A DNA stretch of 64,000 bases. Origin: a phage. The notes under the pieces were generated by a model that was not told where the DNA came from, searched no databases, and saw only the letters and a list, made by a program, of their open reading frames with translations. The number at the start of each line of letters is the position of its first letter. Within the stretch, counting starts at the first letter, position 1. This document shows positions 6,820-28,700 of this stretch, piece by piece. The stretch lies in the NCBI GenBank assembly GCA_032986305.1, contig GCA_032986305.1_3672.1. One strand, 5' to 3'. Both the position numbers and the translations under genes were made by a program.

Positions 6820-7053
6820 ATGGCAAAAATTCGTAAATTATCCAGCAATCAGGTTGTGAAAGACTTTGAATCTGGAGAGATTCTGTATGTTCGTGATGCA
6901 GATGACGAAGGTGAAGATCTTGTTATGTTGGTGGGGCACGCTGAGGACGGATGCATCCAAGCTGTTTTTCTTGAAACAGCTATGGTGCACTGGATAGAGC
7001 TGGACTTGAAAGCACGAAAACCTAAAGCAGAAATCCTGATTTACGAAGATTAA
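6820..7053 (+). CDS. hypothetical protein (77 aa)
   Basis: ORF in array. Confidence 0.4.
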   Translation: MAKIRKLSSNQVVKDFESGEILYVRDADDEGEDLVMLVGHAEDGCIQAVFLETAMVHWIELDLKARKPKAEILIYED

Positions 7054-7069
7054 CAAAAAGGAGATAGCC

Positions 7070-7519
7070 GTGTTGAGCAAGCGTGAATGCGACAGCATTA
7101 GCCTGAATTCTTATAAGAAACAATGGTTTGGGGTAGAAGTTTGCCGACTGCGGCTAGGCTCCTACCTGAACTTCGTTTATTATGAGAGCGATAGTCGTAT
7201 CGTTTCTTATGAAGTGTTCTACACTAAGAACACCTTCGAACTGCGCCGTAAAGTGGATGGTGGGAGAACTACCACCCAGAATAATTGGGAAACTATCCTA
7301 CCTACAGATGTTATAGGAAGTCCCCTGAATGTATCTGAAGATGAAAATCTTATGGTTCATGCTATGATGGGACTTGACAGCTTAGAGCTGGCGATCTATG
7401 ATATGTCCATCGAAGCAGTTAAGCTGGACTACATCGAAAACACTTTAGAGGAAGGTATCAAGAAGTTTCTCAGTGAGAAATTAAAAGACCACTTTCATAA
7501 GGAGCTATATCTGTTATGA
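7070..7519 (+). CDS. hypothetical protein (149 aa, GTG start)
   Basis: AAGGAG precedes GTG at 7070. Confidence 0.45.
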   Translation: MLSKRECDSISLNSYKKQWFGVEVCRLRLGSYLNFVYYESDSRIVSYEVFYTKNTFELRRKVDGGRTTTQNNWETILPTDVIGSPLNVSEDENLMVHAMMGLDSLELAIYDMSIEAVKLDYIENTLEEGIKKFLSEKLKDHFHKELYLL

Positions 7520-7761
7520 AGACCCGTAAAGAACGTAACAAAATTTTACCTGGAGCTCTCGAACACCTGATGAAGTGCAGATCTATTTGGCACTCTGCCA
7601 AGGAAGGGCAGAAGGTGGTTGTGGTCAGTGACAATACCAACCCGTTTGGAGATTATACCACCATGATGGCCCCATATGTCTGTGATGGTGTTGTAGAAGT
7701 GGTGCCTTACAACGGTTTGCATGAACGGCACTTTGAAAGCACTTTGCTGGTGGAGCTATAG
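7516..7761 (+). CDS. hypothetical protein (81 aa)
   Basis: ORF, 4-nt overlap with upstream gene. Confidence 0.4.
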   Translation: MKTRKERNKILPGALEHLMKCRSIWHSAKEGQKVVVVSDNTNPFGDYTTMMAPYVCDGVVEVVPYNGLHERHFESTLLVEL

Positions 7762-7763
7762 TC

Positions 7764-8330
7764 ATGGCTGTCAATGTGGCTTACAACACAGGAAAGCTTG
7801 ACAGAGACATTGGGTGTCTTGTCCTTTCAGATACAGAAGAGTATTGGGGTTATGGGTTGCTGTCAGACCCACACCCGAGCAACCTTGTATCAACAGTGCT
7901 ATACCGCTACGACCCTGTGCCAACGGTACACGACAAAGACATTCACGACCTTCGGATCAAGTGTCTGGAAGATCTGCTGAACAATGGTTGCAATGATCTG
8001 CGGGTAGCCAAAGAGAAGCTTACAAACATTCACAAAGAGGAAGTGATGAGCACCCTCAGTAAGAGATCAGTGCACAAAAAGATGATGCTGAACTTTGCAA
8101 TGGGTATCTACATGGACGGGTATAAGGGAGGTGATCCGATTCTCAAGCTTCGCTGCCCAACACTGTGGGAAAGGGTGGTTGACAGTAAGGACGGCACTGC
8201 CCTGCTTGAGCTTCACACTGCAGGTTGGATATGGCGGTATGTTGATGGATACCCTCTATGGGCATGTGGGCCTGGGGAATTTGTTGACAGGCCTAGTGCG
8301 GTGGTGGACTTGCTATTGCAGTTTGAATAA
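7764..8330 (+). CDS. hypothetical protein (188 aa)
   Basis: ORF in array. Confidence 0.45.
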   Translation: MAVNVAYNTGKLDRDIGCLVLSDTEEYWGYGLLSDPHPSNLVSTVLYRYDPVPTVHDKDIHDLRIKCLEDLLNNGCNDLRVAKEKLTNIHKEEVMSTLSKRSVHKKMMLNFAMGIYMDGYKGGDPILKLRCPTLWERVVDSKDGTALLELHTAGWIWRYVDGYPLWACGPGEFVDRPSAVVDLLLQFE

Positions 8331-8385
8331 AAGTGAGATATAAGGTGTTCATGCACCTACTAACAATACAACAAGAGAGACTGAG

Positions 8386-8661
8386 ATGACGAAAGAAGAA
8401 GCTGACGTATTAGACTTTGCACTGGAGGCTACGCAAGAGGCTCTGGTGTTAGCTTGGAAAATGAACCAGCGTGCTGCAGAATGCAACCGCCGAATCAATG
8501 AGATCCTAAGTATGTCTATGTATGATTTCACCATGCATGCCGGAGAGATTCCTGAATTAACTGCTGAGATGAATGATCTTGACGATAAAATTAATATCAT
8601 TCTGAAGACAGCAGAAACAACTCACCAAACCGCCCGTAAATTTATCAACGAGAAGGTGTGA
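8386..8661 (+). CDS. hypothetical protein (91 aa)
   Basis: ORF in array. Confidence 0.4.
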   Translation: MTKEEADVLDFALEATQEALVLAWKMNQRAAECNRRINEILSMSMYDFTMHAGEIPELTAEMNDLDDKINIILKTAETTHQTARKFINEKV

Positions 8662-9128
8662 ATATGGACTACAGCTACTGCGGGGAAGAGGTCCCTTTTA
8701 ACTACAGCAATCTTACCACAAGCAATCCATATGAGACTCGCCACGGAACACACATCATTGCCATTGACTTTGATGGAACTTTTAATGCGAGCCCTTTCAT
8801 CTTCTCCCGCCTGATCAGGGATCTGAAGAAGGAGGGGTGGACAGTCTACCTTGTGACTTTCCGATTCATTACTCAAGACAATGTAGACATTGAGTATTGG
8901 CGCAAGGAGCTCGATGTTGGTGTGTTTTATACTGGTGGTGTTCAGAAGGCAGCCTATCTGGCGCAGTTTGATATATACCCAGATATCTGGATTGATGATT
9001 CTCCGGCATGTATTCCGGCTAAGAATCAGTTAGAGTTTGCAATGAAGGAGATCGAGTATAAGTCTGAGGCTAAGAGGAACGGATGGCCCTTTATTATTGA
9101 AGATTACCCAGATCCTGAACCGGAGTAA
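8658..9128 (+). CDS. HAD-superfamily hydrolase-like protein (possible nucleotidase)
   Basis: HIIAIDFDGTF matches HAD motif I (DxDGT); IWIDDSP resembles motif IV. Confidence 0.55.
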   Translation: MNMDYSYCGEEVPFNYSNLTTSNPYETRHGTHIIAIDFDGTFNASPFIFSRLIRDLKKEGWTVYLVTFRFITQDNVDIEYWRKELDVGVFYTGGVQKAAYLAQFDIYPDIWIDDSPACIPAKNQLEFAMKEIEYKSEAKRNGWPFIIEDYPDPEPE

Positions 9129-9133
9129 GAGCC

Positions 9134-9304
9134 ATGGGGCGAAGATATCATTACCTGATGTGGAAGTTATATCATGGTGCTGCTAAAGCTTACCGCACCG
9201 TGTTTAGTAATGACAATCACTGCATTATGTTACGCCTTGCCGCCATTGAACATCACAATGAGTGGATTCGTGCAATCGTAATAGGTGACAAAGATTTTAA
9301 GTAA
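9134..9304 (+). CDS. possible small protein (56 aa), below the ORF-track cutoff
   Basis: ATG 9134 preceded by GGAG; reads MGRRYHYLMWKLYHGAAKAYRTVFSNDNHCIMLRLAAIEHHNEWIRAIVIGDKDFK; fills an otherwise empty gap. Confidence 0.3.
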   Translation: MGRRYHYLMWKLYHGAAKAYRTVFSNDNHCIMLRLAAIEHHNEWIRAIVIGDKDFK

Positions 9305-9334
9305 AGTATTGCTTTCTAGATGGAGACTGATTAA

Positions 9335-9715
9335 ATGTGCAAGTGTAAATCCTATAATTGGAAAGTGAAAGGTGCCAAGCATCAAAATGTTATAGTTGAT
9401 GTGCCTAAAAAGCTCCGTGACGGCAAAAAACGTGTGTGCCTTGATAAGTGCATGGCTAAGCCTATCATGAGTCTATGGGCGGCAGGATTGAAAACTCTAA
9501 ACTGCTGCTGTGGTCATAACAAAGATGTTCCAAGTATCATTATCCCAGAAGATGCAGACCCTAAAGCTTATGCCAAAATACTGACCCGCTACCCCAGCAC
9601 CTTCCTGATCGGAAAATGGTGTCACGATGAACTTCAATGGTGGGTAGCATACGGTAGTATAGGTACTGCTTTTGGCTTTCCAGCTCTGTCAGAGCGCTAC
9701 GTCAAAGTGTCATAA
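9335..9715 (+). CDS. hypothetical cysteine-rich protein (126 aa)
   Basis: ORF with clustered Cys (CKCK, CLDKC, NCCCGH), possibly metal-binding. Confidence 0.45.
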   Translation: MCKCKSYNWKVKGAKHQNVIVDVPKKLRDGKKRVCLDKCMAKPIMSLWAAGLKTLNCCCGHNKDVPSIIIPEDADPKAYAKILTRYPSTFLIGKWCHDELQWWVAYGSIGTAFGFPALSERYVKVS

Positions 9716-9819
9716 TCGATTTTAAGGCCTCAAAAGAGGCCTGTGCCTTCATAAATTGCCCCACCATGTGCGATTACCCCCCTGAATAAAATACCCTCTC
9801 AGATCTCTTAAAATTAAGC

Positions 9820-9848
9820 TTGACACCAACACCAGATTTGTATAGGAT
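9820..9848 (+). promoter_or_regulatory. sigma70-like promoter
   Basis: TTGACA (9820-9825), 17-nt spacer, TAGGAT (9843-9848); AGGAG then ATG at 9879. Confidence 0.4.
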
Positions 9849-9878
9849 TATCTCACCAACAAAACAGAGGAGACTGCC

Positions 9879-10286
9879 ATGGAGAATCTTGCAAGTGTGA
9901 ATGTCGAAATTGTTAAACTAAAGTTCTTGGGCTTTCGAGACCCTTATTCTTTAACAGCTATACTAATGGACACTCACTTCACACCAGGTAAAGAGTACAC
10001 AGCCTTCCGTTATATTTGTGGAGATCACGAATCAGCTTATAGTGTGAATACAAACCTCGGCGAGGGATATTTCATCAGAGATATCACAGATCACTTATGG
10101 GGAATGTGGGAGTTGGTGGAAGAAGAGAATAAATCCCTTCCTAAAGAGATTTGGGTGCACACCTTCCACACAGGTAAGTTTGGAGGTACGGAACATAAGT
10201 CTATCCACTATGATGAAGAAAGTGCCATCAAACAACAAGCTGTGCTTGGTGGATCTGTAGAAAAATTTGTTAAATGCGAGGACTGA
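9879..10286 (+). CDS. hypothetical protein (135 aa)
   Basis: ORF with good RBS. Confidence 0.45.
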   Translation: MENLASVNVEIVKLKFLGFRDPYSLTAILMDTHFTPGKEYTAFRYICGDHESAYSVNTNLGEGYFIRDITDHLWGMWELVEEENKSLPKEIWVHTFHTGKFGGTEHKSIHYDEESAIKQQAVLGGSVEKFVKCED

Positions 10287-10289
10287 GAA

Positions 10290-10490
10290 ATGGCTGATTT
10301 TTGTAAAGATTGCTCTGAAGAGTTGTTTGGCTTTGACTGCAAAGATTTGGAAGGTCTGATCACTGAGGATCAGTGGAAGGAAGGCTATGCAGCACCTGTT
10401 ATTTGTGAAGGTTGTGGCTATACCTATGTTGACCATAAAGGTAAGCGCGTCAAGCCGTCTGAAGATGGGTCATGTTGGGAGTATTACTAA
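10290..10490 (+). CDS. small zinc-ribbon-like protein (66 aa)
   Basis: CKDC ... CEGC spacing typical of a zinc ribbon. Confidence 0.45.
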   Translation: MADFCKDCSEELFGFDCKDLEGLITEDQWKEGYAAPVICEGCGYTYVDHKGKRVKPSEDGSCWEYY

Positions 10491-10500
10491 CTATAAAAAG

Positions 10501-10530
10501 AAAGGGGCCAAACGGCCCCTTTTTATTTAC
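10501..10530. terminator. bidirectional rho-independent terminator at the convergent junction
   Basis: aaaggggcc-aaac-ggccccttt hairpin flanked by T-runs on both strands, between the plus array (ends 10490) and the minus giant gene (ends 10538). Confidence 0.65.
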
Positions 10531-10537
10531 CCCCTTG

Positions 10538-13500
10538 TTAACGAGAAAAGGTTGCGTAGGCTTCTAGACGATACTGCTGGTCACCAGGGAACATAACACC
10601 TATAGAGGCTGTCCCTAGAATCCTGCCTTCCTTTCCAGACTCCATTCTGAACCCTACCCATCCTGAACTCCTTGCAGCCTCGATGTTGTCGCTATACCCG
10701 AAAGTGGCAAGATCGTCAACACCAGCCCCAAACAGCAACTGAAGCTGACTTCTCGGAAGCCCTATAATTTCAGGAATATACGCACCAAAGTACACCATCT
10801 GCCCTACCTTAGGACCGCTGCCGTACTCCATCGGTTTGCTTGTAGAGAAAGTCTTCATACCAGAAGTACCTGCCGGACTAGGGTATGCCCCGTTTGTTGC
10901 TGTACCTATCCACATTCTCCACTGTGGTGCCATCTGTTTGACAGTAAAAGATGTTGAAGACGTTTTGCGCCCTGCATCATCAGTAACTACAAACTTTATG
11001 GTGACATTCCCAGTAGCTTTAAATGTTACCAGTCCTGTGGTGGCATCCACTGTTGCAATGTTGGTATTACTACTTTCCCAAGTCTTTCTAATCCCGGATA
11101 CGTTGGAAGGGGTAATAGAAGGTTCCTGCATCTGCAGTTTACCACCCACAATCCCTATGCCGTTGCCCGGATTATACAGCACACCAACCTCGTCTATAAT
11201 ATTCCCTGCTTTGAGACTATACTTCCTTGAGAAGTTGTAGGTTCCGTTATAAGTGTGTGTCCCTGAGAAGGTGACATCTGCCTTCCCGTAAGAGATGCAA
11301 ACCAAAGCATACTTCCTGTCAGGCAACGTTGCTCCAGTCTCCGGGTGAGTTTTACCCACCTGAAACACACTCGGGTCAGTGGAGTTGTGGCTATCACTAA
11401 CGGAGCTTGGACCACCCATCAGTTGTGACAAGCAATTCCTTACCCATGTCCAGTTATTATCACTGGAGAAGTCCACAGTCAAATCAAACACAACCCACTC
11501 ATTTGGCTTCCACACAGGTGTTGTAATGGACTTGCCTACACCACCCCCTTGGAGTGTTGCCGACTGTTCAGTGATCAGGGCCGCATAGGCCAGAGTTCCT
11601 AAACTCAGGGTCTGGCTTGCTGTCCTCACTACCTTAGAATCAGCATCTGTGAAGTTGTTGATAATCTGGAATGTGCCATAAGTGTTTTTACAGGTAATTC
11701 TGGCGTTCAGTGTGTCAATCTTCCTCACATCTGCCATAGCAGTGTTAGACACAGAGAAGTCAGAAGCTTTAGCTGAGTTTGCCGCAACAGCAGGATCAAC
11801 GTTAAGAGTTGCGTTGAACTGACAAGCTGGGGTAACCAGCAGCTTGTTATCACCTATTTGCTTCCATGCAACACTTTGAACAGGAAGATTCCATTTGATA
11901 CCTGAGAAAACTTTAGCAACCCTTGGCCCCAAAGCTCCAGTCCTGTTGTCTTTACAGCACATGGACATGGTGATCGTTGACGGGGTAGCCTGACCGAACA
12001 GTTGCTGTGCTTTTGCAGAGGACATGGTGTAGAAGTTGTCCTTAACAAACTCATCAGCAGCTAAAGATCCGTCAGCCCTCCACCACTGCACCTGGTACCC
12101 GGTCTTATCCCAGCCACCGACCTGCTTCAGGTCTTCCCAAGAGATTTCCAGATCCCCGGTGGTAGGATTGATTGCAGCAGTTCCTGGTGTTCCAGATGAC
12201 CATATTGGAATATCGAACCACGCTGGTTTAACAGATTGTACTGCGTTCGGTCCTATTGCAGCAGCAAGTTGCCGACCCATCAACACACGAGCATCTTTTA
12301 CCAAGCCCCATTCAATCATGGACCCGGAGTAGCCTTCTTTCTTGTAGGCTAAAGATCCGTTCAAATGGATAAGCCTACTGCAGTCGAAACCATACGCCCC
12401 GCCACCGTTAGGATCTGCAAAGTTAGTTATGATTCTATCCCTTATATTTTTCCATGCCCTGCCTCCAATCTCATAGTCATGGTCATAACATCTCTGCAGC
12501 GTTGTCCAGCAAATGATTGCCATTCTTCTGCCACCAGTAAACCCGAAAGCGCCGTCATTCAACTCTTTCCACAGATAGCAGTTAGTTGCCCACATAGCTC
12601 TGTGGATATTGAACCAGTTTATAGACTTAGCAGAATTGTCCCACTGAGTTCCAGGTAATTCAGGCCACACCGCATTCACCAGCATGTCCTCTGTGCCAGC
12701 ATCTACCAGGAAGCCCCTTACCTTCCTACCCATCCCTTCTCTGTCTTTAGCAATCCAATTGCCAAACAGCCTCAGTTTTGGACCATAAACAACATCTTCA
12801 GGGTGCTCAAAAGAGACATACTTCAAGTATACCGTAGGATCACCGTAGGTGCCATCACAAACACTTTTATGCATGTTCTCACCCAGGTCTAGACGAAGTC
12901 CTGTCACCACTTTAGATGTGTCGGTGAATTTGTCTGTTAAATCAAATTCATACCACCACCATCCGCCACCAAGCATAAATTTCTTGCACCGCGCAGTGTC
13001 TGTATCTGATATTCTCTTATCCCCTGCAAAAGGTGAGTCAGCAAACTGATAGTGCAGAGCAGTCTCAAATAGATGTGTTGAGGTTCCGTTTTCTGCAAGA
13101 ACTTGCCTACCTATTAAGTCACACTTAATGATCATCACAACACGCTTGTAGCCGTTTGTTATCGGAACCTGCATGGATATTGGTGTTCCGTCCATGTTCG
13201 ATCTTAGTGTGTTCATGATGATGTAAGGATCAACAGCATTGCCCAAAGTTTCAGGTCCTGGAATTATCTTGTACTTCTTGACCTGCCCCATGAATCTGTC
13301 ACTGGCGTAAGTTGCAGCCTCGAAGCAAGACCCACCACCAGGTAGTTCCCCTGGGCCCCAGAAAAATGCGCCATAACAGTTATAAAACCACTTGTTAGGG
13401 TCATATTTGTTCTTGAAGGTCTGAACCTCGTTAGCCTGTTTTGTCAAGAAAACCTGAGTATCTGTGAAGATTGCAGGGTTCACTCTTGCCTGTCGATCAG

Positions 13501-16174
13501 CATATCCAGGTTGGTTAAACCACTGATTGCAAGAATAGTCCCGCATATAGTCATAATCAGAGTATTTGTTGTTTGCATCCTCGTTCCAACACAAGTTCAG
13601 GTTGGTGCCTCCCATGCACACAATATACTCTTCAACATATTTATCGCTTCGGGCAGGAATTCCTATGAACCATCTGTTAACAGGCTCGTCCCAAGCGGTT
13701 CGTTCATCTTTAACGCAGATAGCAATCCAGTCATGTGTTCCTGTTTTCTTGCACACATCTCGTTTCATACCGTAGTAGAATTCTTTAGTATTTGGCTCAG
13801 GTGCGCTTATCAGGTAACTCCACGCCTGGTCTGCATAGGTTCCGTTGGTGCGAGGGTCATGATCAAAGGCATACATGATGATCCTTTCCCCACCAAGATG
13901 TTCGCCAAGAGTAACTTTGACATTCACATCGCCGTAACCGTTGCGAACAACATCCATATTGTCAATAGAGATGCCTCTAGGGGTGTAGGCAATTTTCAGC
14001 GAGCTATCCTCACTAGTGCCCCCAAGTGTGATCCCTATGTTGTTTGTTGTCCCATCGGCATACCTTACTGTAGCTTCCCAGCGTATTCCGAAATACCCTG
14101 CATCATGGCTGACAATTTTCAGTGTACGAGCACCAGAGTTAGGTTTTCCAGGATCAGGCCAAGGATCTGGATGTTCATGGACAGTCAACGATGTTCCGTT
14201 TTGCTCGTTGACCTGCAACATTTTACCGCCTCTGCCGTTAGGGTTGAACTCCCACAAGGCTTGTGTTTTCACAACATTGTCATACGTAGTACGTCTCTGA
14301 TCGTAGATCTCTTGAGTCACATCGTAGGTTACAGACCCGGCATCCATTCTATGGAGTCGTACCATATACGATGTATCGCCTTCTACAACAGGTTGAGCTG
14401 CGTTAAGCCCGAAGTATGCAGTATCGTTGACATGGAACTGTTTGTTTCTACCGACAGTATGCCACTTGCCGTTGGACGGATACGCAGGAACTATAGTGTT
14501 CCAGTTCAAAGTTCTTGTCGTATGGGTTCTGCCTGTGCCATGCTTGTCATGATAGGTTATTTTTACAGAGTACAGGCCACGTCTGTTAACATTTCTGTTA
14601 TATTGGGTAACAACAACTTCGTTGGCTCCACCGTGGTTCCAGTTGGTGGAGAATTGGTAATTTGCATCTGTAACAACCGTACCTGCAGCATTTACCAGTT
14701 CAATCTTGTCAATAATGAACGTAGCCCCCTCTGGCTGAGGCTTCAATTTCATCTTGACCGTGTCACCAATGTAAATATTGCTAACGCTGCTAACACCGTT
14801 AACGTCGAAAATATCATCAACACCCCAACTGTCTACCGGGACATTTTTATACCAATTCTCAGGAACCTCTGTGAACCCCTGACTATTAAGTCTGCCGCCA
14901 AACAGGTTATTAGATCCTGCAAAACTTCCCCTTGGGATGCCTGACCACCAAAGTTTGCCATTAACAACAGTAAAGGTTCCTAAAAAACCTTCTCTGTGAA
15001 TGCCTTGGAAATAAACACTTTCTGTCCAGCTAACTGGGAGGCGTTGCTCAACGTATTTGGCTGTGGCAAGAGCTTGATAGTGGATAAAATTGGCCCTAGG
15101 GCTATTGTTTGCAGATTGTGCGCCAATATCATTGCAAAGGTTGCGAGAGAATCCACGGTACTGCTTAGTACCATTGTTGAAGAAAATGCCACTTGTGCCG
15201 TACCCACGAGCCATTATTACCTCATGGGTGTAGGTGATATTCAAGGCACGCCATGTATCATCTCCCCAGACGTCTTGCCCGTAGAATACGTTAACAAGTT
15301 GCTGGTCATCAGGTCTGTGCATTCTTTGTGTTACAACCACTGCCCCGTTCGGACCGCACATGAACCCTTTCCACTCCTCATCTGTAGGAATGCCCCTCAA
15401 ATCGTCACGGGTAATCTGAGCAGGGGGCCAAACGAGAGTGTTTCTACTATTGTTTCTCAGAAAGTCATATCCAGCAATCCAGAAACCTCTAGGACCACCG
15501 AAAATAACAGAGTTATCATGCACCTCACAGTTAATGCTTGGGTTTTTCCAAGGACCTGTTTCAGGATTTTCCGATGTTTCACCAATCTTTACAGGGGTTG
15601 CATGCTGGTTTTTATCCACATGCAAAGATCCGTAGGTGTTGTTGCCAGATCCGTACAGGTGTAAAATGCCAGTGCCTTCTGCCTCTGCCATAACCCAGAC
15701 GGTGTTGTTAATACCGCCCATCACCTCAACAAGGCGCTCTGGGTGGGTGTCAAGGTGCAATCCTTTAACGATTTGTTCAGGAAGAGGTGTCCACTCCCTC
15801 ACACAAACATCATTACCGCCTGCAGCATCAGACCCAATAAGCCCTGCAGTACAGCCGATGTAGAAAAACTGATTATCAAAAGTTCGGATCACAAACGCAC
15901 GGTCTGCTCTCCACACATGATCAACGTTCCAGGCAGCCTCATTAGGGTAGTTTATCGTGTCAAGATCCCCAGTCCTACACTCCCCGAACCTGTTGTACCC
16001 TGTAATATTAAGCTGACCATTGTCAAAAAGTATAGCTAAGCTATTTACATAGGCTACTGTAGTGCTTGTACCGTCACTGTTGTCTATTGGGTATGACAGA
16101 ACAGCAAGTTCCTTAACTCCACCCCTCTTATCGAGGAAATGACGACCAAGTTTTAGCAAAGGGATTGGAAGCAT
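10538..16174 (-). CDS. giant tail fiber/virion protein (1878 aa) with RCC1-like repeats and a C-terminal Big_2 Ig-like domain
   Basis: N-terminal GYNRFGECRTGD and LYGSGNNTYGSLHVD resemble RCC1 propeller repeats; C-terminal NVSGIRKTWESSNTNIATVDATTGLVTFKATGNVTIKFVVTDDAGRKTSSTSFTVK is Big_2-like; RBS GGAG before ATG. Confidence 0.65.
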   Translation of the reverse strand: MLPIPLLKLGRHFLDKRGGVKELAVLSYPIDNSDGTSTTVAYVNSLAILFDNGQLNITGYNRFGECRTGDLDTINYPNEAAWNVDHVWRADRAFVIRTFDNQFFYIGCTAGLIGSDAAGGNDVCVREWTPLPEQIVKGLHLDTHPERLVEVMGGINNTVWVMAEAEGTGILHLYGSGNNTYGSLHVDKNQHATPVKIGETSENPETGPWKNPSINCEVHDNSVIFGGPRGFWIAGYDFLRNNSRNTLVWPPAQITRDDLRGIPTDEEWKGFMCGPNGAVVVTQRMHRPDDQQLVNVFYGQDVWGDDTWRALNITYTHEVIMARGYGTSGIFFNNGTKQYRGFSRNLCNDIGAQSANNSPRANFIHYQALATAKYVEQRLPVSWTESVYFQGIHREGFLGTFTVVNGKLWWSGIPRGSFAGSNNLFGGRLNSQGFTEVPENWYKNVPVDSWGVDDIFDVNGVSSVSNIYIGDTVKMKLKPQPEGATFIIDKIELVNAAGTVVTDANYQFSTNWNHGGANEVVVTQYNRNVNRRGLYSVKITYHDKHGTGRTHTTRTLNWNTIVPAYPSNGKWHTVGRNKQFHVNDTAYFGLNAAQPVVEGDTSYMVRLHRMDAGSVTYDVTQEIYDQRRTTYDNVVKTQALWEFNPNGRGGKMLQVNEQNGTSLTVHEHPDPWPDPGKPNSGARTLKIVSHDAGYFGIRWEATVRYADGTTNNIGITLGGTSEDSSLKIAYTPRGISIDNMDVVRNGYGDVNVKVTLGEHLGGERIIMYAFDHDPRTNGTYADQAWSYLISAPEPNTKEFYYGMKRDVCKKTGTHDWIAICVKDERTAWDEPVNRWFIGIPARSDKYVEEYIVCMGGTNLNLCWNEDANNKYSDYDYMRDYSCNQWFNQPGYADRQARVNPAIFTDTQVFLTKQANEVQTFKNKYDPNKWFYNCYGAFFWGPGELPGGGSCFEAATYASDRFMGQVKKYKIIPGPETLGNAVDPYIIMNTLRSNMDGTPISMQVPITNGYKRVVMIIKCDLIGRQVLAENGTSTHLFETALHYQFADSPFAGDKRISDTDTARCKKFMLGGGWWWYEFDLTDKFTDTSKVVTGLRLDLGENMHKSVCDGTYGDPTVYLKYVSFEHPEDVVYGPKLRLFGNWIAKDREGMGRKVRGFLVDAGTEDMLVNAVWPELPGTQWDNSAKSINWFNIHRAMWATNCYLWKELNDGAFGFTGGRRMAIICWTTLQRCYDHDYEIGGRAWKNIRDRIITNFADPNGGGAYGFDCSRLIHLNGSLAYKKEGYSGSMIEWGLVKDARVLMGRQLAAAIGPNAVQSVKPAWFDIPIWSSGTPGTAAINPTTGDLEISWEDLKQVGGWDKTGYQVQWWRADGSLAADEFVKDNFYTMSSAKAQQLFGQATPSTITMSMCCKDNRTGALGPRVAKVFSGIKWNLPVQSVAWKQIGDNKLLVTPACQFNATLNVDPAVAANSAKASDFSVSNTAMADVRKIDTLNARITCKNTYGTFQIINNFTDADSKVVRTASQTLSLGTLAYAALITEQSATLQGGGVGKSITTPVWKPNEWVVFDLTVDFSSDNNWTWVRNCLSQLMGGPSSVSDSHNSTDPSVFQVGKTHPETGATLPDRKYALVCISYGKADVTFSGTHTYNGTYNFSRKYSLKAGNIIDEVGVLYNPGNGIGIVGGKLQMQEPSITPSNVSGIRKTWESSNTNIATVDATTGLVTFKATGNVTIKFVVTDDAGRKTSSTSFTVKQMAPQWRMWIGTATNGAYPSPAGTSGMKTFSTSKPMEYGSGPKVGQMVYFGAYIPEIIGLPRSQLQLLFGAGVDDLATFGYSDNIEAARSSGWVGFRMESGKEGRILGTASIGVMFPGDQQYRLEAYATFSR

Positions 16175-16179
16175 TGTGT

Positions 16180-16214
16180 TCTCCAGATAAGAAAACCGCC
16201 CCGTCAGGAGCGGT
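16180..16214 (-). terminator. putative rho-independent terminator
   Basis: Minus-strand hairpin accgctcc-tgac-ggggcggt followed by TTTCTTATCTGG. Confidence 0.4.
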
Positions 16215-16222
16215 CAGATATA

Positions 16223-17968
16223 TTAACGTTGTGCAATAACCACATCCACAATATCACCAACACCACAATATGTCAATTGTAGCAAGGTAACGCTGTTGGC
16301 TTTGTTGTTAATGACAGGGGTAGCCGACAGTATGGCATATTTATCGTGCAAAGTCACGTTGTGGCCTACAGCATCTTGAATGACATAGATGATTGCAGTA
16401 AACGGGTAAGGTTTATCTTCAGCCGATGTTCCAGGCCATTGGCCTATTGTAAAATCCCCTTTCGCGTGGACAACATACATGCTGGCCTGCCCGTTAGGTG
16501 TCCATGTCCCACTAGATGCGTCAACCTCCTCTAAATCAAAATCTACCTTCCCTGCGTGGAAAGTAGGGGCAGTAATGGTTTTACCCGCCTCAATTTCTTG
16601 AGAGGTGGTTATCTTACCGCTGGAGTTAATGCCATTACAGACAAAGTTGACATTAGAGAAGTCTGGCAGCCACCCGGTCACTGTGCCGGATATTTCAAGG
16701 TTGTGAAGGTAGGTGGTGCCAGTCCCTGCTGCGTTTAAACTAACATCTCCATTTACCTGCAAGTTTCGGGTAACGTTGCAGTTTTCAGAGTTTGCAGTTG
16801 TTGCAGTTAAAGTGGTGGTGGTCAGCTCGGTAATTGTACCTTTATTGGCTGTAAGCCCTTCTCCTTCAAAAGTTGCACGCTCATTGACTCTTAGAGTATT
16901 CAGAGCTATATTTTGGATAGAGGCTGTACCTCGAATAACTACAGACCCGCCAACCTCCAAATCTCCATTTATCAATGCGTCACCCGTGCTTTCAATATAG
17001 CTAGGGTAGATCATGGTGCCATCGACAGAGTAGGTTATCCCTGTAACAGTACCTGTCACCTCAAGGTTCTTAACCCTGGTGGTCCCATCGACCTGCAATG
17101 TCGGTTCGGTTGCTGCCTTCATGGCATTACCACGAATGTACACGTAGTCAAAAAAGTTATTGCCTAAACCATCAAAATGCACATCGTTATTATTAGCCAC
17201 GGGTTTCCCAGAAGTTATAGTGTCAGCTATAATCCTGTGGGTGGACACTTCATGAGGTTGCAGCTCTGTGCTTCTCCAGTCTGCATGCTTAGGATCGCTC
17301 CACGCAAAAGTAAGTGTAGAAGTATTTGCCGTAAGGATTAGATTCCTGAAGCGTGCAGTAGAATCTGCTCCATTAACAGGTCCATGTAAGGTAAGGGTGC
17401 CCCCAACTATGGTGTTGGCGAGTTCTGTAAGACCTTTTACCACCAAAGACCCTACAGTAACTTTCATCCCCTCCATGGCTTCAAATATGCTATCAACATA
17501 GTCAACAACAAACTCTGTGTTTGCTATGGACTCTGACTTATCGTCCATTGGAGGTGTAGGTACTCGCGGGTCACCTTCGAACCTTGGGCTGTTAAGTTTT
17601 GCGTAGTATTTTGCCATTACTGCAGAGTCGGTATATAATCTCCAGTTTGGAGATTGTGAAGGATCTGCTGGCATTCTAACCGGGTTAGATTTTGATGCTG
17701 CGGGAGCGTACCACCACTGAGGGCCTGTGTCCCCTTTAAACTCATATAACTGGTTAAAAACTGTTGTGGATGCACCATACGCCCAAGGGATCGGCGGCGT
17801 TTTAAAATAAAGGGTGTCAAGCATGGCTTTTCGTACCGTAGGGATGGTGGTACCATCCTCTACGACAACTTCATCCACAGCGTTACCGTTGACAATCAGG
17901 TGCAAACGTTCAGAATCAACAATTACTTGATCTACCGCCTGCTCAAAGCTTGTCATGTCTTGCGCCAT
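16223..17968 (-). CDS. tail fiber protein (581 aa)
   Basis: Repetitive Gly/Thr/Asn-rich beta-type sequence; position within the fiber cluster. Confidence 0.55.
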   Translation of the reverse strand: MAQDMTSFEQAVDQVIVDSERLHLIVNGNAVDEVVVEDGTTIPTVRKAMLDTLYFKTPPIPWAYGASTTVFNQLYEFKGDTGPQWWYAPAASKSNPVRMPADPSQSPNWRLYTDSAVMAKYYAKLNSPRFEGDPRVPTPPMDDKSESIANTEFVVDYVDSIFEAMEGMKVTVGSLVVKGLTELANTIVGGTLTLHGPVNGADSTARFRNLILTANTSTLTFAWSDPKHADWRSTELQPHEVSTHRIIADTITSGKPVANNNDVHFDGLGNNFFDYVYIRGNAMKAATEPTLQVDGTTRVKNLEVTGTVTGITYSVDGTMIYPSYIESTGDALINGDLEVGGSVVIRGTASIQNIALNTLRVNERATFEGEGLTANKGTITELTTTTLTATTANSENCNVTRNLQVNGDVSLNAAGTGTTYLHNLEISGTVTGWLPDFSNVNFVCNGINSSGKITTSQEIEAGKTITAPTFHAGKVDFDLEEVDASSGTWTPNGQASMYVVHAKGDFTIGQWPGTSAEDKPYPFTAIIYVIQDAVGHNVTLHDKYAILSATPVINNKANSVTLLQLTYCGVGDIVDVVIAQR

Positions 17969-19297: not shown

Positions 19298-19386
19298 CGC
19301 GTTCTCCTGAGAAAATTCCTTAGGACTATTTTAACACTTTAGAGAACAAAATGCAAGAACGGAGTCCTTTCCGTTCTGACCTTTGT

Positions 19387-19712: not shown

Positions 19713-20297
19713 TTAGAGGGTAGGTCGCTCCGGGAAGAAAATGTCAGGGGCTTTAGATGTATCTATTTCAAGAAGTTTTACCCTGTACATTTTCAAATCT
19801 CTGATGTTACGTTTCTGGTCATCAGTAAGATCATATTCAAGGTCAATCATGTCTTGATAGGCACCAATTCTAGCAGTAGCCCAAGCAAGTTCTGTCTCTA
19901 TGACACCCTCTGCCTGTTGAACAAAGAATTCATTATCTGTGACAAATTCATCACCAACTAAACGCAAAGCGTCGTGGTGAAGCATAATGTTTTCTGGTAC
20001 CTCTTCTTTTTTGGCGATAACCACACGAAGACCTGGAGCAGGCCATAAGGCATCAGGTTCTTCTGTAGATGTCTTAAGAATTCCCTTCTCGTCAACAAGT
20101 AGGAAGATACAACCCGGATTTTCTTGTCGTAATGTTCGTGACTGCACATACCAATCGCCATCATCATTACGTAAAAAATACCCGGTGTATGCAGTGTAAT
20201 CCTCAACCTCTTGAGGGGTCAGCTCCTTGGTTTCCTTGTTGGCGTGGTATTCGCCAGATCCCGGTTGGTAAAGTTTAAACTCTTGAAGTATTTTCAT
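19713..20297 (-). CDS. tail fiber assembly chaperone (Tfa-like)
   Basis: C-terminal KMYRVKLLEIDTSKAPDIFFPERP resembles the Caudo_TAP signature; immediately follows a fiber gene. Confidence 0.6.
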   Translation of the reverse strand: MKILQEFKLYQPGSGEYHANKETKELTPQEVEDYTAYTGYFLRNDDGDWYVQSRTLRQENPGCIFLLVDEKGILKTSTEEPDALWPAPGLRVVIAKKEEVPENIMLHHDALRLVGDEFVTDNEFFVQQAEGVIETELAWATARIGAYQDMIDLEYDLTDDQKRNIRDLKMYRVKLLEIDTSKAPDIFFPERPTL

Positions 20298-21364: not shown

Positions 21365-23437
21365 TTATGAGAAGTCTGGCGGGACAACATCTTCTACATA
21401 CCCTTTCAGAGCAACCTGCCCCATATGAAGCACGGTAGAATCTCTAGCGGTAACAGTGATGCTGTCAGACATTACTTGCGGGTATGCCCACACATACTGT
21501 TTTACCTCAGGGTATCTATACTCTATAGTTGCCATGTTTCCGCAAATACATCTCCATAAAAATTCTTGGTAATTCCTAGTTGGGTCGTATCCATATACCG
21601 GAGCAAGCTCTTTACTAGGAACGAACCCTGCAAGGTATTGTATTTCAGACGGTTGCCAACCTAACTTAACGATAGGTATGTTTACAGACTCTTTTGCCTT
21701 TTCAATACCTCCCTGCATCACCCAATCGTAGCACTCAGTGCAGAAGAAATCAAGAGCACCTGCTTCTTTTTTATATTGGTCAGCAAGGTTCAGCTTTTGC
21801 GTAAGCTCGGTTTCCATAATGGTTGGGAAAAACAGCAGAGCTGTCATCTGAGCTGATGCAGCGTGTGCCTTTATTGCCTTTGAAATGGCCGCAATACGAG
21901 CGCCAAGCTTACCACGACAAAATGCTACATACTTGTCGTAAACACCGCCTGTTTTAGGATCGTCAATAGTCCCAATATCTAAGGCATACTCGCCTGTCTC
22001 ATCATAAAACGCCTGTTTTGTAGGGTAATCATAAATACAAGGTCTACGAGTATCGGTATTGAACCACCACCACGGTTCACCAACCTGCATAATCACTGGC
22101 AGGTTGTTTCTCATAGCGGCTGATGCAAAATTCTTAAATACTGCAGTAAGGAAATTCATACCCTCTTCAATGGTTGGAGACAGGAGGTAGCTACAAGGTG
22201 TATATCCTGTTTTAGCGTAGTTATCATTCCAGTCTCTTTGTGTCCATTCCAACGGGCAGGCATCGCTGTAAAGCTCAAAACTTACAGACTGCATAACGTC
22301 GAAGTTATGTCGTTTGGCATTGTACATAAAATCATCATGCCATTTATAAGCTGCAGCGTTTAGCGCCCCTGTTCTGTTTATATACCATTGGGTTCCTGAC
22401 CATGTGTAGTCATAATAATGACTCATACCAACATAATGGTTTATGGTTCCAGTATAGCCCAGACGCTTGATATTGTTCAACACCCTTAAAGGAGATACGT
22501 TCCACATATCGTCATATGCGGTGCAGATCCCAACGTCGTGCTCTTTAACCTGAATATTGTTAAGTTGCATCATTTTCCAGCCCGTGTCTGGCTGAAGCAG
22601 ATCTAGGCGCAACTCACACTCTACATTTTCCGTTCTTGGGTCTGTGCTATTACTTACCCAGTCTTTAGGCATAAGCGGTATTAAAATCCTTCTCACCTGT
22701 CGAGGATCAACACCCATCATGTTGTTGTTCTGATCCATCCCGACGCAGTCCTCGAAATCAATATGAATCTCTGCAACATTCTTATCCTCTGAGATGCTGA
22801 CAGCATATTGAGCTAAAGGAACATAGATGATTGTGCCATCAACAAGGTCTACAGTCATAATCATCTTTTCAGGAGTGGAGAAGTTGCTGGCATTGGTTAT
22901 TGACATTCTGAACCAAAGCTTGGTGTTTCTCATCTCATAGTGATCATCAAACCCAATACCGAAATGGTCATACTTGTCAACTGTTTCCCAAATGCACCCA
23001 GCCATACCTCCATATGTTCTTGACACTAAACGGTTAATACAACAGTTGTCATCTGCAACAATACAGGTACTTTCAGTCTGCTGAGTGGTTGTAACCCAAT
23101 ATCTTGGGTGAAACATTCTCTCCTCAACAGTATCCCAGGATATCCTGTCAAGATTCTCATCTGAAACTATTGTACATTTCGCCCTTTGTGTCCCAATCAT
23201 TACCCCTTGAGATTTTGATGAAAACTCCATAAAGAAGCTTCTTGGCAACCTGTTGGGTAATTTGTCAACAATTTCCACTGGGATCTCAATACTGGTTGCC
23301 CCAACTGGGATAGTTACATCGCCCTCAACATGATTATAATCCCTACCAGGAACGGCAGTATCCTGAACTGTTCGGTAATGAAACTGTGCAGCCATTGTAG
23401 AGTAATCACGGTAAGGTTTAAAAACAGCTGTTGCCAT
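21365..23437 (-). CDS. large structural protein (690 aa), possible fiber or spike with enzymatic domain
   Basis: Long ORF in the fiber cluster; Trp/Tyr-rich C-terminal half; function not resolved. Confidence 0.45.
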   Translation of the reverse strand: MATAVFKPYRDYSTMAAQFHYRTVQDTAVPGRDYNHVEGDVTIPVGATSIEIPVEIVDKLPNRLPRSFFMEFSSKSQGVMIGTQRAKCTIVSDENLDRISWDTVEERMFHPRYWVTTTQQTESTCIVADDNCCINRLVSRTYGGMAGCIWETVDKYDHFGIGFDDHYEMRNTKLWFRMSITNASNFSTPEKMIMTVDLVDGTIIYVPLAQYAVSISEDKNVAEIHIDFEDCVGMDQNNNMMGVDPRQVRRILIPLMPKDWVSNSTDPRTENVECELRLDLLQPDTGWKMMQLNNIQVKEHDVGICTAYDDMWNVSPLRVLNNIKRLGYTGTINHYVGMSHYYDYTWSGTQWYINRTGALNAAAYKWHDDFMYNAKRHNFDVMQSVSFELYSDACPLEWTQRDWNDNYAKTGYTPCSYLLSPTIEEGMNFLTAVFKNFASAAMRNNLPVIMQVGEPWWWFNTDTRRPCIYDYPTKQAFYDETGEYALDIGTIDDPKTGGVYDKYVAFCRGKLGARIAAISKAIKAHAASAQMTALLFFPTIMETELTQKLNLADQYKKEAGALDFFCTECYDWVMQGGIEKAKESVNIPIVKLGWQPSEIQYLAGFVPSKELAPVYGYDPTRNYQEFLWRCICGNMATIEYRYPEVKQYVWAYPQVMSDSITVTARDSTVLHMGQVALKGYVEDVVPPDFS

Positions 23438-25730: not shown

Positions 25731-28700
25731 TTAGTCGTGAGACTCGTTCCAAGGTCCTTGGAAGCTTGAGTTAGAACGGCTTACCACAACAGTAGGGCAG
25801 GATATTGCGACCCCTGTTACAGAAGACGTTGACCATGGTGTGTAGATTTCAACAACAATATCTATGGTTTGTTCACCAAGACCTGTTATCCCTACCGCAC
25901 ACATGCCGTTGTTGTCGTTTCCGTACTTCTTACCTGCAAGGATTTGATGTCCGGCTATCCAAACGTTGAGCTGGGAGCTGGCAAGAGTACCATTCAGTTT
26001 AAAGAAGAATGTTACGTTCTTACCCTGACCTGAAACGTTATCTACGTATCTCCACCTCCAACGGCAAACCCTTTGCTGGGAGTTATATACTGGAGCACAA
26101 TCCCCGTAAGTCCTGTGTGCAACAATTGCACCTTCGAACTGGTTAGCACGGATAACAGAAGCTTCTACACGACCACGGAAGGTACCTCCGGTTGCATCTA
26201 TGGTGCCCCTAAAGCTACCATTATTGGCATAAACATCCCCACGGAAGGTACCACTAGTGGCGTTAACTGCCCCTGTGAAGTTACCAGAACTAGCGTTGAT
26301 GTTGCCTTTCACCCACACATCCATAAATTGGGCGTGCCCGTTCTTGTTAATATACCAACCGTATTTATGGTACCCGTTGCCATCGTAGTTGTTTGACGAG
26401 ATTTCTTGTGCGATCTTGGCAGAGGAGATCGTGCCATTCTCTATAAAAGCGTCTTTCAAGAACGCTTGGTTGTTCTTGATTGCGAAAGCAAGGGTTGCTG
26501 TTCCATTTCCTGGGTTGTATACCGCAAAATTGTTTGCACTAACCATGAAGTAGGATTGAACTTGGCCTCCAGACCCTTCCATCCCCAACTGAATACCTGC
26601 AACATATTTATTCCCTGCGGAGTCTACCTGTATTTTTGTGCCCCATTGAGCATTTACTTTACCCTCTAAGTCGGTTACAGCCTTAGATGTTGTAGCTACT
26701 GCAGCCCTGATCTCAGACACATCCCCAACATCATCCATGATCTCCTGCTTAGCAACAGCAAGTTCTTGACGAATAGCTGACGCTGTGCCGTTGATAAGGT
26801 CCACAGTGGCTTTGTTGGTATCGGAAATTGTAGCATCCAGCGCTGTTTTTGTGGAGGTCAGTTTTCCATCCAAAGCATCAATCGCTTGCTTGTTGGTAGA
26901 AATCTCCCCACGTGCAGAAGTTATCTGCTCTGACAGTGCAGATGTTTTCTGATTCAGCAGGTCAGTGGTGGCCTTGTTGGTATTGGCAATCAAGGTGTTG
27001 AGGTCAGTTTTTGCGGTAGTTATCTTTCCGTCAAGGGTGGTATAGTTTTTAGATACCGTCGCGTTTGTCTGACTAATCTTTTGATCCAGAGTTTCAGATG
27101 TCCTGTTCAGAAGATCTACAGTGGCTTGGTTAGTGCTCAAGATGCTTGCGTCAAGTTCTGTTCTCTGAGTATTGATCTTACCATCCAGAGTTTTATCTCC
27201 GGCTAAATACCCGCTCTCAACTCCATCTATCTGCTCTACCAGCTCACCTTTGGCGGCAACCAATTTCTCATCTAAAGCCTCTGTCTTTTTGTTCAGAAGA
27301 TCAGTAGTTGCTTTATTGGTTGTCTCAATCAGAGATGCCAATCTTCCACTTTCAGTGTTCAGATCGTTGGTGAACTTGTTCTGTGCAGCAACAAGTTTCC
27401 TATCCAGCGCTGTGATATTGCCATTGACATCCTCAAACTTCTGAGTTGTCTCTGTAACTACCGCACCTATTCTGTCTCCAAGTTGCTGGAATGCCTCATC
27501 TACCCTACCATCCATGTATTTATTAAGCTCTGTGACACGATTTTCAACCCCTTCAATAGAGGAATCCAAAGTGCTCATCAACTCTTTATAAGTTTCTGTC
27601 TTTTTGAATTCAGCATCTATCTGAGGCATCAAATCCTCGATAGAGGTGTAGCAGCGTGCAGCGCATTCTACAAACTGAGAGCTACCAAAAGCGTTTGTGG
27701 TTCGAATATACCAATAATAAACCTTATCGTTCTGCAGGCCTTCAGATGTCCAAGTTGAACCAACACCCATACGGGTGGCGTTTGAAGTAATGGTTGCATC
27801 ACTGGTATCTGGCAATCTTGTCATCCCAGATGTCCAAAAGTCATACTGGGTGCTTACACTAGCCAAGTCTCTGCTGTGCGGGATCAAGGTGATAGCAAAG
27901 TATCCCTGCTTAACCTCTACAGAAACCGGAGCTTCAGGTGCCTGAATGTTAAACTCGCAGTACGCTTCTGGAGATACACCGCCTTTATAAGATGTTGCAA
28001 CCACGGTTGCTGTGTATGACCCTTTGGTCAATCCTTCTACGCGGACAAACTGCTCGACTGTTTGTGCTGTCCAAATAATCTCTCCGTTCTTTCTTACCTG
28101 CACAATGTTTTGAGCATAAGTCCCAACGTTGTCCCAAGCCAAAACACCGTGCGTCACTTCCCCAGCTTGAAGAACAGAGTATCTGAAGTTTTGCGGTTGA
28201 GCTACACCAGATGGAGATATCGGAATATTTACATCTCCAGAGTCTGGAAGTTGCCCTGTGGCATCATTCCACTCTTTAGCATCTTGACGGAGTTTTACCT
28301 TGACACCGCCCTTTTTGGTGAACTCCCATTCAAGAACCCTCATTTCTTGGCCTACTATACCAATACTTGGAAGGTCCATCGTAACGTAACGCCCAGGTTT
28401 AAATTTAAAACCTCGCATATTGCAGGTTACTTCAATAATCCTGCCAGCTCTGGCACGTCTTAAGAATATTGCAGAAACACGTTGAGCCTGATAAGGACTG
28501 GTAACAAAACGATAATCTATATCAATTATCTTTCTTTCTCCGTCCTTCTCCACCCACTCAGGAACGAACACTGATGGGAAGTCTGTTTCAGAATACCCTT
28601 TGGTTGGACTGGTGAATCTGCCAGTTATTGTGTTGGATCTTTTGTCAAATGAGGCTTCCGGATAGATCTTAACCTCACCACAGACACAGTCCTCACTAAG

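Follow-up and report, generated by a model that had tools for sequence, protein, structure and literature searches.

The gene examined here lies on the minus strand of a 64,000-nucleotide stretch of phage DNA (the window; GenBank assembly GCA_032986305.1, contig GCA_032986305.1_3672.1), where a complete ORF encoding 1878 amino acids occupies positions 10538–16174. It begins with ATG, a GGAG Shine-Dalgarno sequence is present at 16181–16184, 6 nt 5′ of the start, and its product matches phrog_15684 over the full length. Compared with the copy in phage JohannBauhin, 325 codons of the gene differ synonymously and 86 non-synonymously, and third codon positions account for 358 of the 468 substitutions. 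From this synonymous excess, we conclude that the ORF is real and is under strong purifying selection along its 5.6 kb. A BLAST search of the protein against itself did not find internal repeats, and the two short motifs quoted in a preliminary description of this locus are located at aa 59–70 (GYNRFGECRTGD) and aa 173–187 (LYGSGNNTYGSLHVD).

The gene closes a long minus-strand structural block, in agreement with the preliminary description, which had called it the last gene of the late operon and had placed a bidirectional terminator at its end. Immediately downstream, at 10501–10522, there is a symmetric hairpin (AAAAAGAAAGGGGCCAAACGGCCCCTTTTTATTT) with A- and T-runs on its flanks; this is a bidirectional intrinsic terminator between the gene and the convergent plus-strand genes, which end at 10490. 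The terminator pair t026/t027 is annotated at the equivalent site downstream of gp27 in phage rV5 (PMC3606486). A further terminator-like hairpin, absent from the preliminary description, is found on the minus strand at 16194–16215 (CCGCTCC-TGAC-GGGGCGG followed by TTTTCTTAT), between the upstream gene for a 581-aa fibre and the ribosome-binding site of the gene; its rV5 counterpart is t028, with a deltaG of -12.4 kcal/mol. The nearest upstream late-promoter-like motif (TGTTAAAATA, minus strand, 19327–19336) is equivalent to rV5 P030, and no late promoter was found intervening between it and the gene. A transcript reading through to the gene would probably be driven from this motif. Because the gene sits behind a terminator-like hairpin and lacks a promoter of its own, expression by read-through is probable, and this would fit a low copy number of the protein.

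Judged by its sequence, the gene is the orthologue of gp27 of the Vequintavirus phage rV5, and thus an already catalogued gene. The same gene is found at the same position in rV5, in O157 typing phage 4 and, in BASEL genomes, as bas53_0040 and bas54_0041; rV5 gp27 also has 1878 aa, the Bas54 copy has 1875 aa, and the rV5 terminator pair downstream is the same. These Vequintavirus orthologues share 92–94% nucleotide identity with our gene (80–95% over all matching records) and differ from it only allelically. More than 100 deposited genomes contain the gene, with a best match of 94.4% nucleotide identity, and it is full-length in 108 of the 121 matching phage records. Lineages down to 40% identity keep it full-length and in the same synteny, including the 40%-identical relative P0015, where it occupies the same position. 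The orthologue is split in several deposited genomes, and a metagenomic relative has an in-frame TGA at codon 558. Public records of the orthologues name an Ig, Big_2 or intimin domain, and an N-terminal RCC1-like domain is not among the annotations seen. The finding of the preliminary description is thus correct and not surprising, in that it refines the annotation of a known gene rather than revealing a new system. Statements about "gp27" in the papers on phage LL12 were set aside, as in the LL12 numbering this name probably denotes the adjoining 581-aa fibre, and the orthologue there is labelled "hypothetical protein."

Published data on the orthologues bear on where the protein is found and whether it is needed. 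In MudPIT analysis of rV5 virions, gp27 (1878 aa, 208 kDa) was represented by 3 peptides and 9 spectra with 3.1% coverage (PMC3606486 Table S5), and the proposal that our gene encodes a virion protein is borne out through this orthologue. The HIDEN-SEQ preprint (10.1101/2025.11.20.689424) places bas54_0041, the orthologue of our gene, among the tail-fibre genes in which disruptive transposon insertions are tolerated on E. coli K-12; the protein is thus reported to be dispensable on that host. The passages on cryo-EM of Bas49 and Bas54 describe only three fibres resolved near the baseplate and do not assign this protein to any of them.

No part of the protein is better conserved than the N-terminal domain (aa 1–450; 14825–16174, minus strand), which has seven blade motifs anchored at G59, G107, G175, A234, G299, G341 and G412. 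We took RCC1 membership to be defined by the curated gathering thresholds of PF00415 and PF13540 for the repeat and PF25390 for the RCC1-like domain. A Pfam search with the whole protein gave no RCC1 match at E<=10, and a search with the N-terminal 450 aa alone gave RCC1_2 at 12.9 bits against a 22-bit cut-off (E 0.1), below threshold; orthologues match PF25390 at E 1e-4 to 3e-3, far under its 150-bit cut-off. The domain is, however, homologous over about 420 aa to the propeller of the phrog_11922 "tail protein" of Phapecoctavirus, Seunavirus and Justusliebigvirus (P0017–P0022, 588–891 aa), with an hhalign probability of 99.9% (E 6e-34, 382 aligned columns) and phmmer E-values of 1e-14 to 7e-22. 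The P0017-type proteins do pass PF00415 (22.1–31.4 bits against 21.7), and P0017–P0022 match phrog_4219 "regulator of chromosome condensation" at E 1e-30 to 1e-34. The two motifs quoted in the preliminary description fall on columns that are invariant between our family and these Pfam-RCC1-positive tail proteins, so they are not chance resemblances. Taken together, the profile comparisons argue that the N-terminus is homologous to bona fide RCC1-positive proteins and in this sense belongs to the RCC1-like domain superfamily. The proposal of RCC1-like repeats thus stands as profile-profile homology, while the protein itself scores under the threshold of every RCC1 profile. An AlphaFold2 model of aa 1–570 built on a 21-sequence family alignment has a mean pLDDT of 50.6, and the propeller is probably seven-bladed. 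A word-indexed homologue search with the N-terminal profile returned essentially only family fragments, and a literature search on RCC1 in phage tail proteins found nothing relevant.

The propeller is followed by an Ig-like beta-sandwich (aa 451–565; 14480–14824, minus strand) that is predicted to be all-beta with a pLDDT of roughly 50–80. Foldseek matched it to single Ig domains with a target TM of about 0.5; there is also a weak PKD_4 match (E 0.039), and orthologues have weak Bact_surface_Ig-like matches. Beyond it lies a family-restricted central region with no assignable fold (aa 566–1330; 12185–14479, minus strand). An exhaustive phmmer search with aa 1–1200 against 1.84 billion representatives found nothing outside the family past residue ~200, and no relatives were detectable outside the family for residues ~560–1430 (~870 aa). 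Pfam searches with the whole protein and with segments gave no match in aa 566–1330, and a PDB sequence search gave none for the central region. An AlphaFold2 model of aa 451–1650, built on a 16-sequence family alignment, has a mean pLDDT of 47.4, and Foldseek against the PDB returned only generic multi-beta-sandwich matches with TM <0.25 (multi-Ig, transglutaminase and N4-tail), which we left uninterpreted. Outside a few islands, the low confidence of both AlphaFold models does not allow conclusions about domains, and the number of blades and of domains is therefore provisional. One better-predicted island is a beta-sandwich at aa ~966–1125 (12800–13279, minus strand). The Trp/Cys-rich segment that follows it (aa ~1126–1330; 12185–12799, minus strand) is conserved and is predicted to be helical at very low confidence (pLDDT <40); the motifs GTEDMLVN, NWFNxHRAMW, CWTxLxRCY and EGYSGSMIEWG are invariant there across homologues that are 35–50% identical over the segment. 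A reading of its "ICWTTL" as a transglutaminase or papain-like Cys-His site was dropped because no invariant His follows the Cys.

The lineages diverge in the remainder of the protein. A beta domain at aa 1331–1433 (11876–12184, minus strand; pLDDT 58–76) is weakly fn3-like, with a match below threshold (E 0.039). The next segment (aa 1434–1585; 11420–11875, minus strand) has been replaced in, or cannot be aligned to, the more distant lineage, where BLASTP coverage stops at 1433 and resumes at 1585 and identity falls to 12–38%. The C-terminal module (aa 1586–1878; 10541–11419, minus strand) is about 37% identical in that lineage and contains the Big_2 domain (PF02368) anticipated by the preliminary description, at aa 1682–1733 (10976–11131, minus strand), with a Pfam score of 33.5 bits against a gathering threshold of 22.8 (E 4.1e-8). 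The module matches phrog_215 (E 8.8e-47) and an intimin Ig domain in the PDB (E 0.003), and PF26918 Ig_Eae is precomputed on orthologues. PDB sequence searches with the single sequence and with a family profile gave weak Ig-domain matches only, and a word-indexed search with the C-terminal 293 aa returned essentially only family fragments. The "head and packaging" label of phrog_215 was not used as evidence for a capsid location, as this family gathers generic Big_2 proteins and split gp27 fragments. Conservation thus runs in a gradient, with the N-terminus most conserved and the C-terminal third swapped or divergent. Among isolated Vequintaviruses, the C-terminus falls into two allele groups (95–99% and 84–90%) and is fairly conserved, being less variable than a typical specificity-determining tip.

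The architecture therefore reads as an RCC1-like propeller of ~450 aa, an Ig-like domain, ~870 aa that are family-specific, mostly beta-rich and weakly fn3-like at their end, a lineage-variable segment and a Big_2 module. We propose, with roughly even chances of being right, that Vequintavirus gp27 is a low-abundance accessory virion adhesin that is docked via its propeller and is not needed for an infective particle. The propeller would most likely serve as the docking site by which the protein is held on the baseplate or the tail-fibre network, because no other part is shared with the shorter proteins that end the operon in sister phage groups. The chain of beta-sandwiches and the variable C-terminal module would project outwards, where they would probably bind, weakly and reversibly, to glycans or proteins on the surface of certain natural hosts. 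Such contacts would aid adsorption on those hosts and would be dispensable on E. coli K-12. The docking and binding ends are assigned from conservation patterns; alternatively, the propeller may itself bind a ligand as a conserved head. Phage therapy and biocontrol make use of rV5-like phages for their broad host range, which has been attributed to an unusually complex tail-fibre set. The gene examined here encodes the largest protein of that tail-fibre locus, with a propeller common to shorter locus-end proteins in sister phage groups, and three results narrow what it may do: it starts with an RCC1-like propeller, it has no classical fibre or enzyme signatures, and it is dispensable on K-12.

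A more conventional reading is that gp27 is a classical trimeric lateral tail fibre, one of the three Vequintavirinae fibre sets, whose distal end sets host range. In its favour, some Bas54 lateral fibre genes are reported to be conditionally essential on clinical isolates in the preprint cited above (10.1101/2025.11.20.689424). The BASEL annotation is "lateral tail fiber protein with intimin domain," in keeping with the position in the fibre locus, and in the BASEL paper rV5 gp27 is taken to be the last of the large genes for lateral tail fibres, with moderate allelic variation; its authors nevertheless call the assignment of genes to fibres unclear. The conserved N-terminus and divergent C-terminus would also suit a fibre, but the N-terminus has a predicted globular propeller fold, and this fold occurs as a single-chain domain. 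Moreover, neither the whole protein nor its segments matched a coiled coil, beta-helix, collar, T4 gp34-37-type or intramolecular-chaperone (S74) domain in Pfam or PHROGs, and the models predict a string of beta-sandwiches with a low-confidence helical patch, without long helices. The gene is followed by the convergent terminator and not by a chaperone gene; the only fibre-assembly protein of the locus (Caudo_TAP) is encoded at 19713–20297, adjoining the short-fibre genes. The low mass-spectrometric coverage of rV5 gp27 (3.1%) also argues against this reading. We therefore consider the trimeric fibre unlikely, and the "giant fiber" of the preliminary description is not sustained, as neither recognisable trimeric-fibre modules nor an adjoining chaperone were found.

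Two bolder, related readings are less likely again. The propeller may be a hitherto unrecognised, exchangeable virion-docking adaptor of the end-of-operon proteins of Vequintavirinae and Stephanstirmvirinae, which bear differing modules, or the ~870-aa central region may be a new glycan-acting or glycan-binding domain. This region is found nowhere else and has invariant Glu, His, Cys and Trp motifs.

It is improbable that gp27 is a Hoc-like Ig-domain decoration of the capsid, neck or tail tube, by which the particle would stick non-specifically to mucus or glycans instead of recognising a host. Ig-like domains, Big_2 among them, infectivity without the protein, and the phrog_215 label "structural protein with Ig domain" (PHROGs class head and packaging) would be expected of such a protein, but that label probably derives from the split gp27 fragments and generic Big_2 proteins, and the gene belongs to the tail-fibre locus instead of grouping with the head genes. 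High abundance is typical of decoration proteins, but the coverage of gp27 was only 3.1%, and the known decoration proteins are far smaller than 208 kDa.

It is distinctly improbable that gp27 is an enzyme carried by the virion, whether one that depolymerises or modifies polysaccharide or one that hydrolyses the cell wall, with its catalytic domain at aa ~1126–1330. The dense invariant Glu, Asp, His, Cys and Trp motifs of this segment and the glycosidase- or deacetylase-type domains borne by neighbouring fibre proteins of the locus make it conceivable, but the conserved Trp and Cys are equally explicable as a structural core and AlphaFold confidence is <40 there. No glycoside hydrolase, lyase, esterase or peptidase family emerged from Pfam, PHROGs, the PDB sequence profile or the fold search, and the earlier suggestion that the protein may degrade surface polysaccharide thus loses its footing, as neither the whole protein nor its segments matched a glycosidase, lyase or esterase family. 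Least credible is that the 3 peptides are lysate carry-over from a decaying or non-structural late gene, as its dispensability and its nonsense or split alleles might suggest, given the strong purifying selection over 5.6 kb, the full-length gene in 108 of 121 matching phage records with the same synteny down to 40% identity, and the related RCC1-like proteins that are bona fide virion proteins of W70 (PMC11370258).

Among related systems, gp27 can be compared with the phrog_11922 proteins, in which a propeller is likewise followed by Ig or Big_2 domains. In Phapecoctavirus ESCO25, the one genome examined, the gene for this protein is also the last of the tail-fibre operon, ahead of convergent genes. 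The phrog_11922 proteins pass Pfam RCC1, which ours does not; they are about 1000 aa shorter, without the central region, and have unrelated C-termini, e.g., DUF285, so that only the propeller and Big_2 are common to the Phapecoctavirus protein and ours. In the same phage subfamily, Septuagintavirus W70 has three RCC1-like proteins in its virions by mass spectrometry, for which its authors suggested a DNA-packaging role; we did not find supporting evidence for that role (PMC11370258). These proteins (phrog_4219) place a propeller in virions, but they stand alone as single-domain proteins of about 40 kDa that are encoded elsewhere in the genome, and they can be likened to gp27 only via the P0017-type propeller. 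The wider RLD superfamily (RCC1, RCC2, HERC2 RLDs, UVR8, Kti13/ATS1, RPGR), whose Pfam thresholds our protein does not reach, consists of nuclear or cytosolic regulators, whereas gp27 is set in an extracellular phage particle; because a Ran or GTPase-type partner is inconceivable there, RLD function cannot be transferred to it. In Staphylococcus phage phi11, the receptor-binding trimer Gp45 has a five-bladed propeller in its distal platform. Both phages thus have a propeller in a tail-associated protein, that of gp27 being N-terminal, RCC1-like and probably seven-bladed, a likeness by description only. Ig-like domains are displayed on phage particles, as in T4 Hoc; in gp27, Ig is a small part of 208 kDa and the gene is among fibre and not head genes. 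Lastly, the Big_2 domain passes its threshold and aligns to the Ig domains of intimin, and by analogy with the Big_2 and intimin-invasin Ig adhesins, weak surface or glycan adhesion is the likely role of gp27 too.

The open reading frame occupies 10538..16174 on the minus strand, with an ATG start and 1878 codons, and a GGAG ribosome-binding site lies 6 bases 5′ of the ATG. Comparison with the orthologue in phage JohannBauhin gives 325 synonymous against 86 non-synonymous codon differences, with 358 of the 468 substitutions at third positions; by this measure, the frame is a genuine gene held under purifying selection. By megablast, the gene is present in 121 deposited phage records, 108 of them with at least 80% of the gene covered, almost all E. 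coli Vequintavirus (rV5-like myoviruses), with a top identity of 94.4%. About 15–20 "Campylobacter phage" records (GenBank MG065635–MG065690, host C. jejuni) are ∼92–94% identical to the gene, and their C. jejuni host assignment looks doubtful. The protein is the orthologue of rV5 gp27, an 1878-aa, 208-kDa "conserved hypothetical protein" with Big_2 (PMC3606486), and of BASEL bas53_0040 and bas54_0041, annotated as "lateral tail fiber protein with intimin domain." Its full-length PHROGs family, phrog_15684, has its function listed as unknown.

The preliminary description quoted two RCC1-like motifs, and both are present, at residues 59–70 and 173–187; the RCC1 assignment itself failed when Pfam was applied directly to this protein but stood by way of its relatives. 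Searched with the full-length protein at E ≤ 10, Pfam returned no RCC1 family, and RCC1_2 remained below threshold in residues 1–450 alone (12.9 bits versus a 22-bit cut-off), with the match at residues 47–64, the site of the first motif. An exhaustive phmmer search of residues 1–1200 against 1.84 billion representative proteins gave only eight matches, five of which are 588–891-aa proteins sharing the N-terminal ∼200 residues. These five are members of phrog_11922 ("tail protein"), also carry Big_2 domains, and exceed the Pfam RCC1 threshold (22.1–31.4 bits versus 21.7) at the equivalent of the second motif. They also match the RCC1-like domain PF25390 over residues ∼40–360 (E 4e-12 to 8e-9), to which 12 of 15 homologues of our protein show weak matches (best E 1e-4). 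Profile–profile alignment (hhalign) of residues 1–450 with residues 1–416 of the relatives (probability 99.9%, E 6e-34) shows, at the level of sequence, homology across the whole N-terminal domain, and positions invariant in both families fall on repeating glycine-rich turns. With a low-confidence AlphaFold model of the N-terminus as query, the sole Foldseek match at E ≤ 0.001 was HERC2 RLD2. We conclude that residues 1–450 are a divergent RCC1-like domain, presumably folded as a propeller and the most conserved part of the protein; it is probably seven-bladed, a provisional count.

The C-terminal Big_2 domain that had been proposed is borne out by Pfam (33.5 bits versus a 22.8-bit cut-off, residues 1682–1733), and its nearest PDB sequence match is an intimin Ig domain. 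A further Ig-like sandwich at residues ∼451–565 is indicated by predicted structure and weak matches, residues 1331–1433 are weakly fn3-like, residues 1434–1585 are replaced in a more distant lineage, and the C-terminal module (1586–1878) has only ∼37% identity there. In isolated Vequintaviruses, two allele groups of the C-terminus can be told apart (95–99% and 84–90% identity).

As had been described, the gene ends the minus-strand structural block, and 3′ of it lies a bidirectional terminator opposite convergent plus-strand genes: a symmetric GC hairpin at 10501–10522 with flanking A- and T-runs, whose rV5 equivalent is annotated as the pair t026/t027 (PMC3606486). The preliminary description lacked a second terminator-like hairpin (16194–16215, minus strand), the equivalent of rV5 t028 (PMC3606486), between the upstream fibre gene and the ribosome-binding site. 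Because this hairpin is directly 5′ and the stretch from it to the ATG is free of late-promoter motifs (the nearest is at 19327–19336), the gene, which is the largest in the locus, seems from sequence to depend on terminator read-through, and its product would therefore be of low abundance. Its neighbours make up the tail-fibre locus already known from Vequintavirus and include short fibres, a Caudo_TAP chaperone, an N4-type NCTSP TIM-barrel protein, and a lambda-J-like protein. The upstream 581-aa fibre gene (16223–17968, minus strand) has no match in the Pfam copy searched. The newer families PF26208 and PF26209 (Phage_phiTE_241_N/C) are present in its orthologues and connect it with a protein of phiTE, a phage that has been studied structurally. 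Also on the minus strand, a 690-aa protein (21365–23437) combines Calx-beta with N4-type non-contractile tail sheath N-terminal and TIM-barrel domains, and a 1279-aa protein (25731–29570) has lambda-J-type Ig_J and Phage_Tail_Tip domains, in contrast to the myovirus nature of the phage.

The reading with the best support, to which we give about even chances, is a low-copy accessory adhesin, in which the conserved propeller would dock to the baseplate or fibre network and, in this orientation, the Ig-rich remainder would contact surface structures, the putative ligands, of particular natural hosts. What is shown so far is the domain architecture, the detection in virions, and the dispensability. 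Disruptive insertions are tolerated in bas54_0041 (HIDEN-SEQ preprint, 10.1101/2025.11.20.689424), so infective virions can be made on E. coli K-12 without an intact copy of the gene. Consistent with dispensability, a metagenomic relative (Logan SRR22133733 contig, 7001–12628) has one in-frame TGG-to-TGA change at codon 558, and the gene is annotated as two CDS in YP-6, ECP26, phita32, and APCEc02; possible explanations are natural knock-outs, read-through sites, or sequencing errors.

A classical trimeric fibre is unlikely. In the BASEL paper, gp27 comes last in the count of large lateral tail-fibre genes and varies moderately between alleles; the authors stress that gene-to-fibre correspondence is not established. 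Cryo-EM of Bas49 and Bas54 resolved only three fibres near the baseplate versus nine annotated fibre genes. A Hoc-like decoration protein is distinctly improbable. We think it very unlikely that the protein is a virion-borne enzyme with its activity in the central region, where residues ∼566–1330 had no relatives outside the family within the phmmer search (residues 1–1200), no Pfam profile matches (whole protein and segments), no PDB sequence matches, and no meaningful match in a fold search. Within that region, a β-sandwich at ∼966–1125 is moderately well predicted (AlphaFold), and the least explained stretch of the protein is the Trp/Cys-rich segment at ∼1126–1330 (12185–12799, minus strand), strongly conserved with many invariant residues (GTEDMLVN, NWFNxHRAMW, CWTxLxRCY, EGYSGSMIEWG), of very low AlphaFold confidence (below 40), and with no homologue detectable outside the family. 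That the protein is non-structural is scarcely credible. As the virion-protein proposal implied, rV5 gp27 has been seen in virion MudPIT (three peptides, 3.1% coverage; PMC3606486).

Much about the gene is already known: it is in >100 public genomes, its product has been seen in virions, and it is dispensable. The increments here are small, namely the assignment of the N-terminus to RCC1-like tail/virion proteins and ∼870 central residues for which phmmer (residues 1–1200) found no relative outside the family. This phage subfamily already has catalogued examples of both RCC1-plus-Big_2 tail proteins and RCC1-like virion proteins. In W70, a related phage of the Vequintavirinae, three stand-alone ∼40-kDa RCC1-like proteins (phrog_4219) were found in virions by MS, and their authors proposed, by analogy of name, a possible role in DNA condensation (PMC11370258). 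In a metagenomic relative 40% identical to our protein, the locus is fully syntenic. Phapecoctavirus ESCO25 has instead an 891-aa propeller plus Big_2 protein at the corresponding position, the end of the fibre operon ahead of the convergent genes, and thus the propeller is the constant element and what comes after it is exchangeable.
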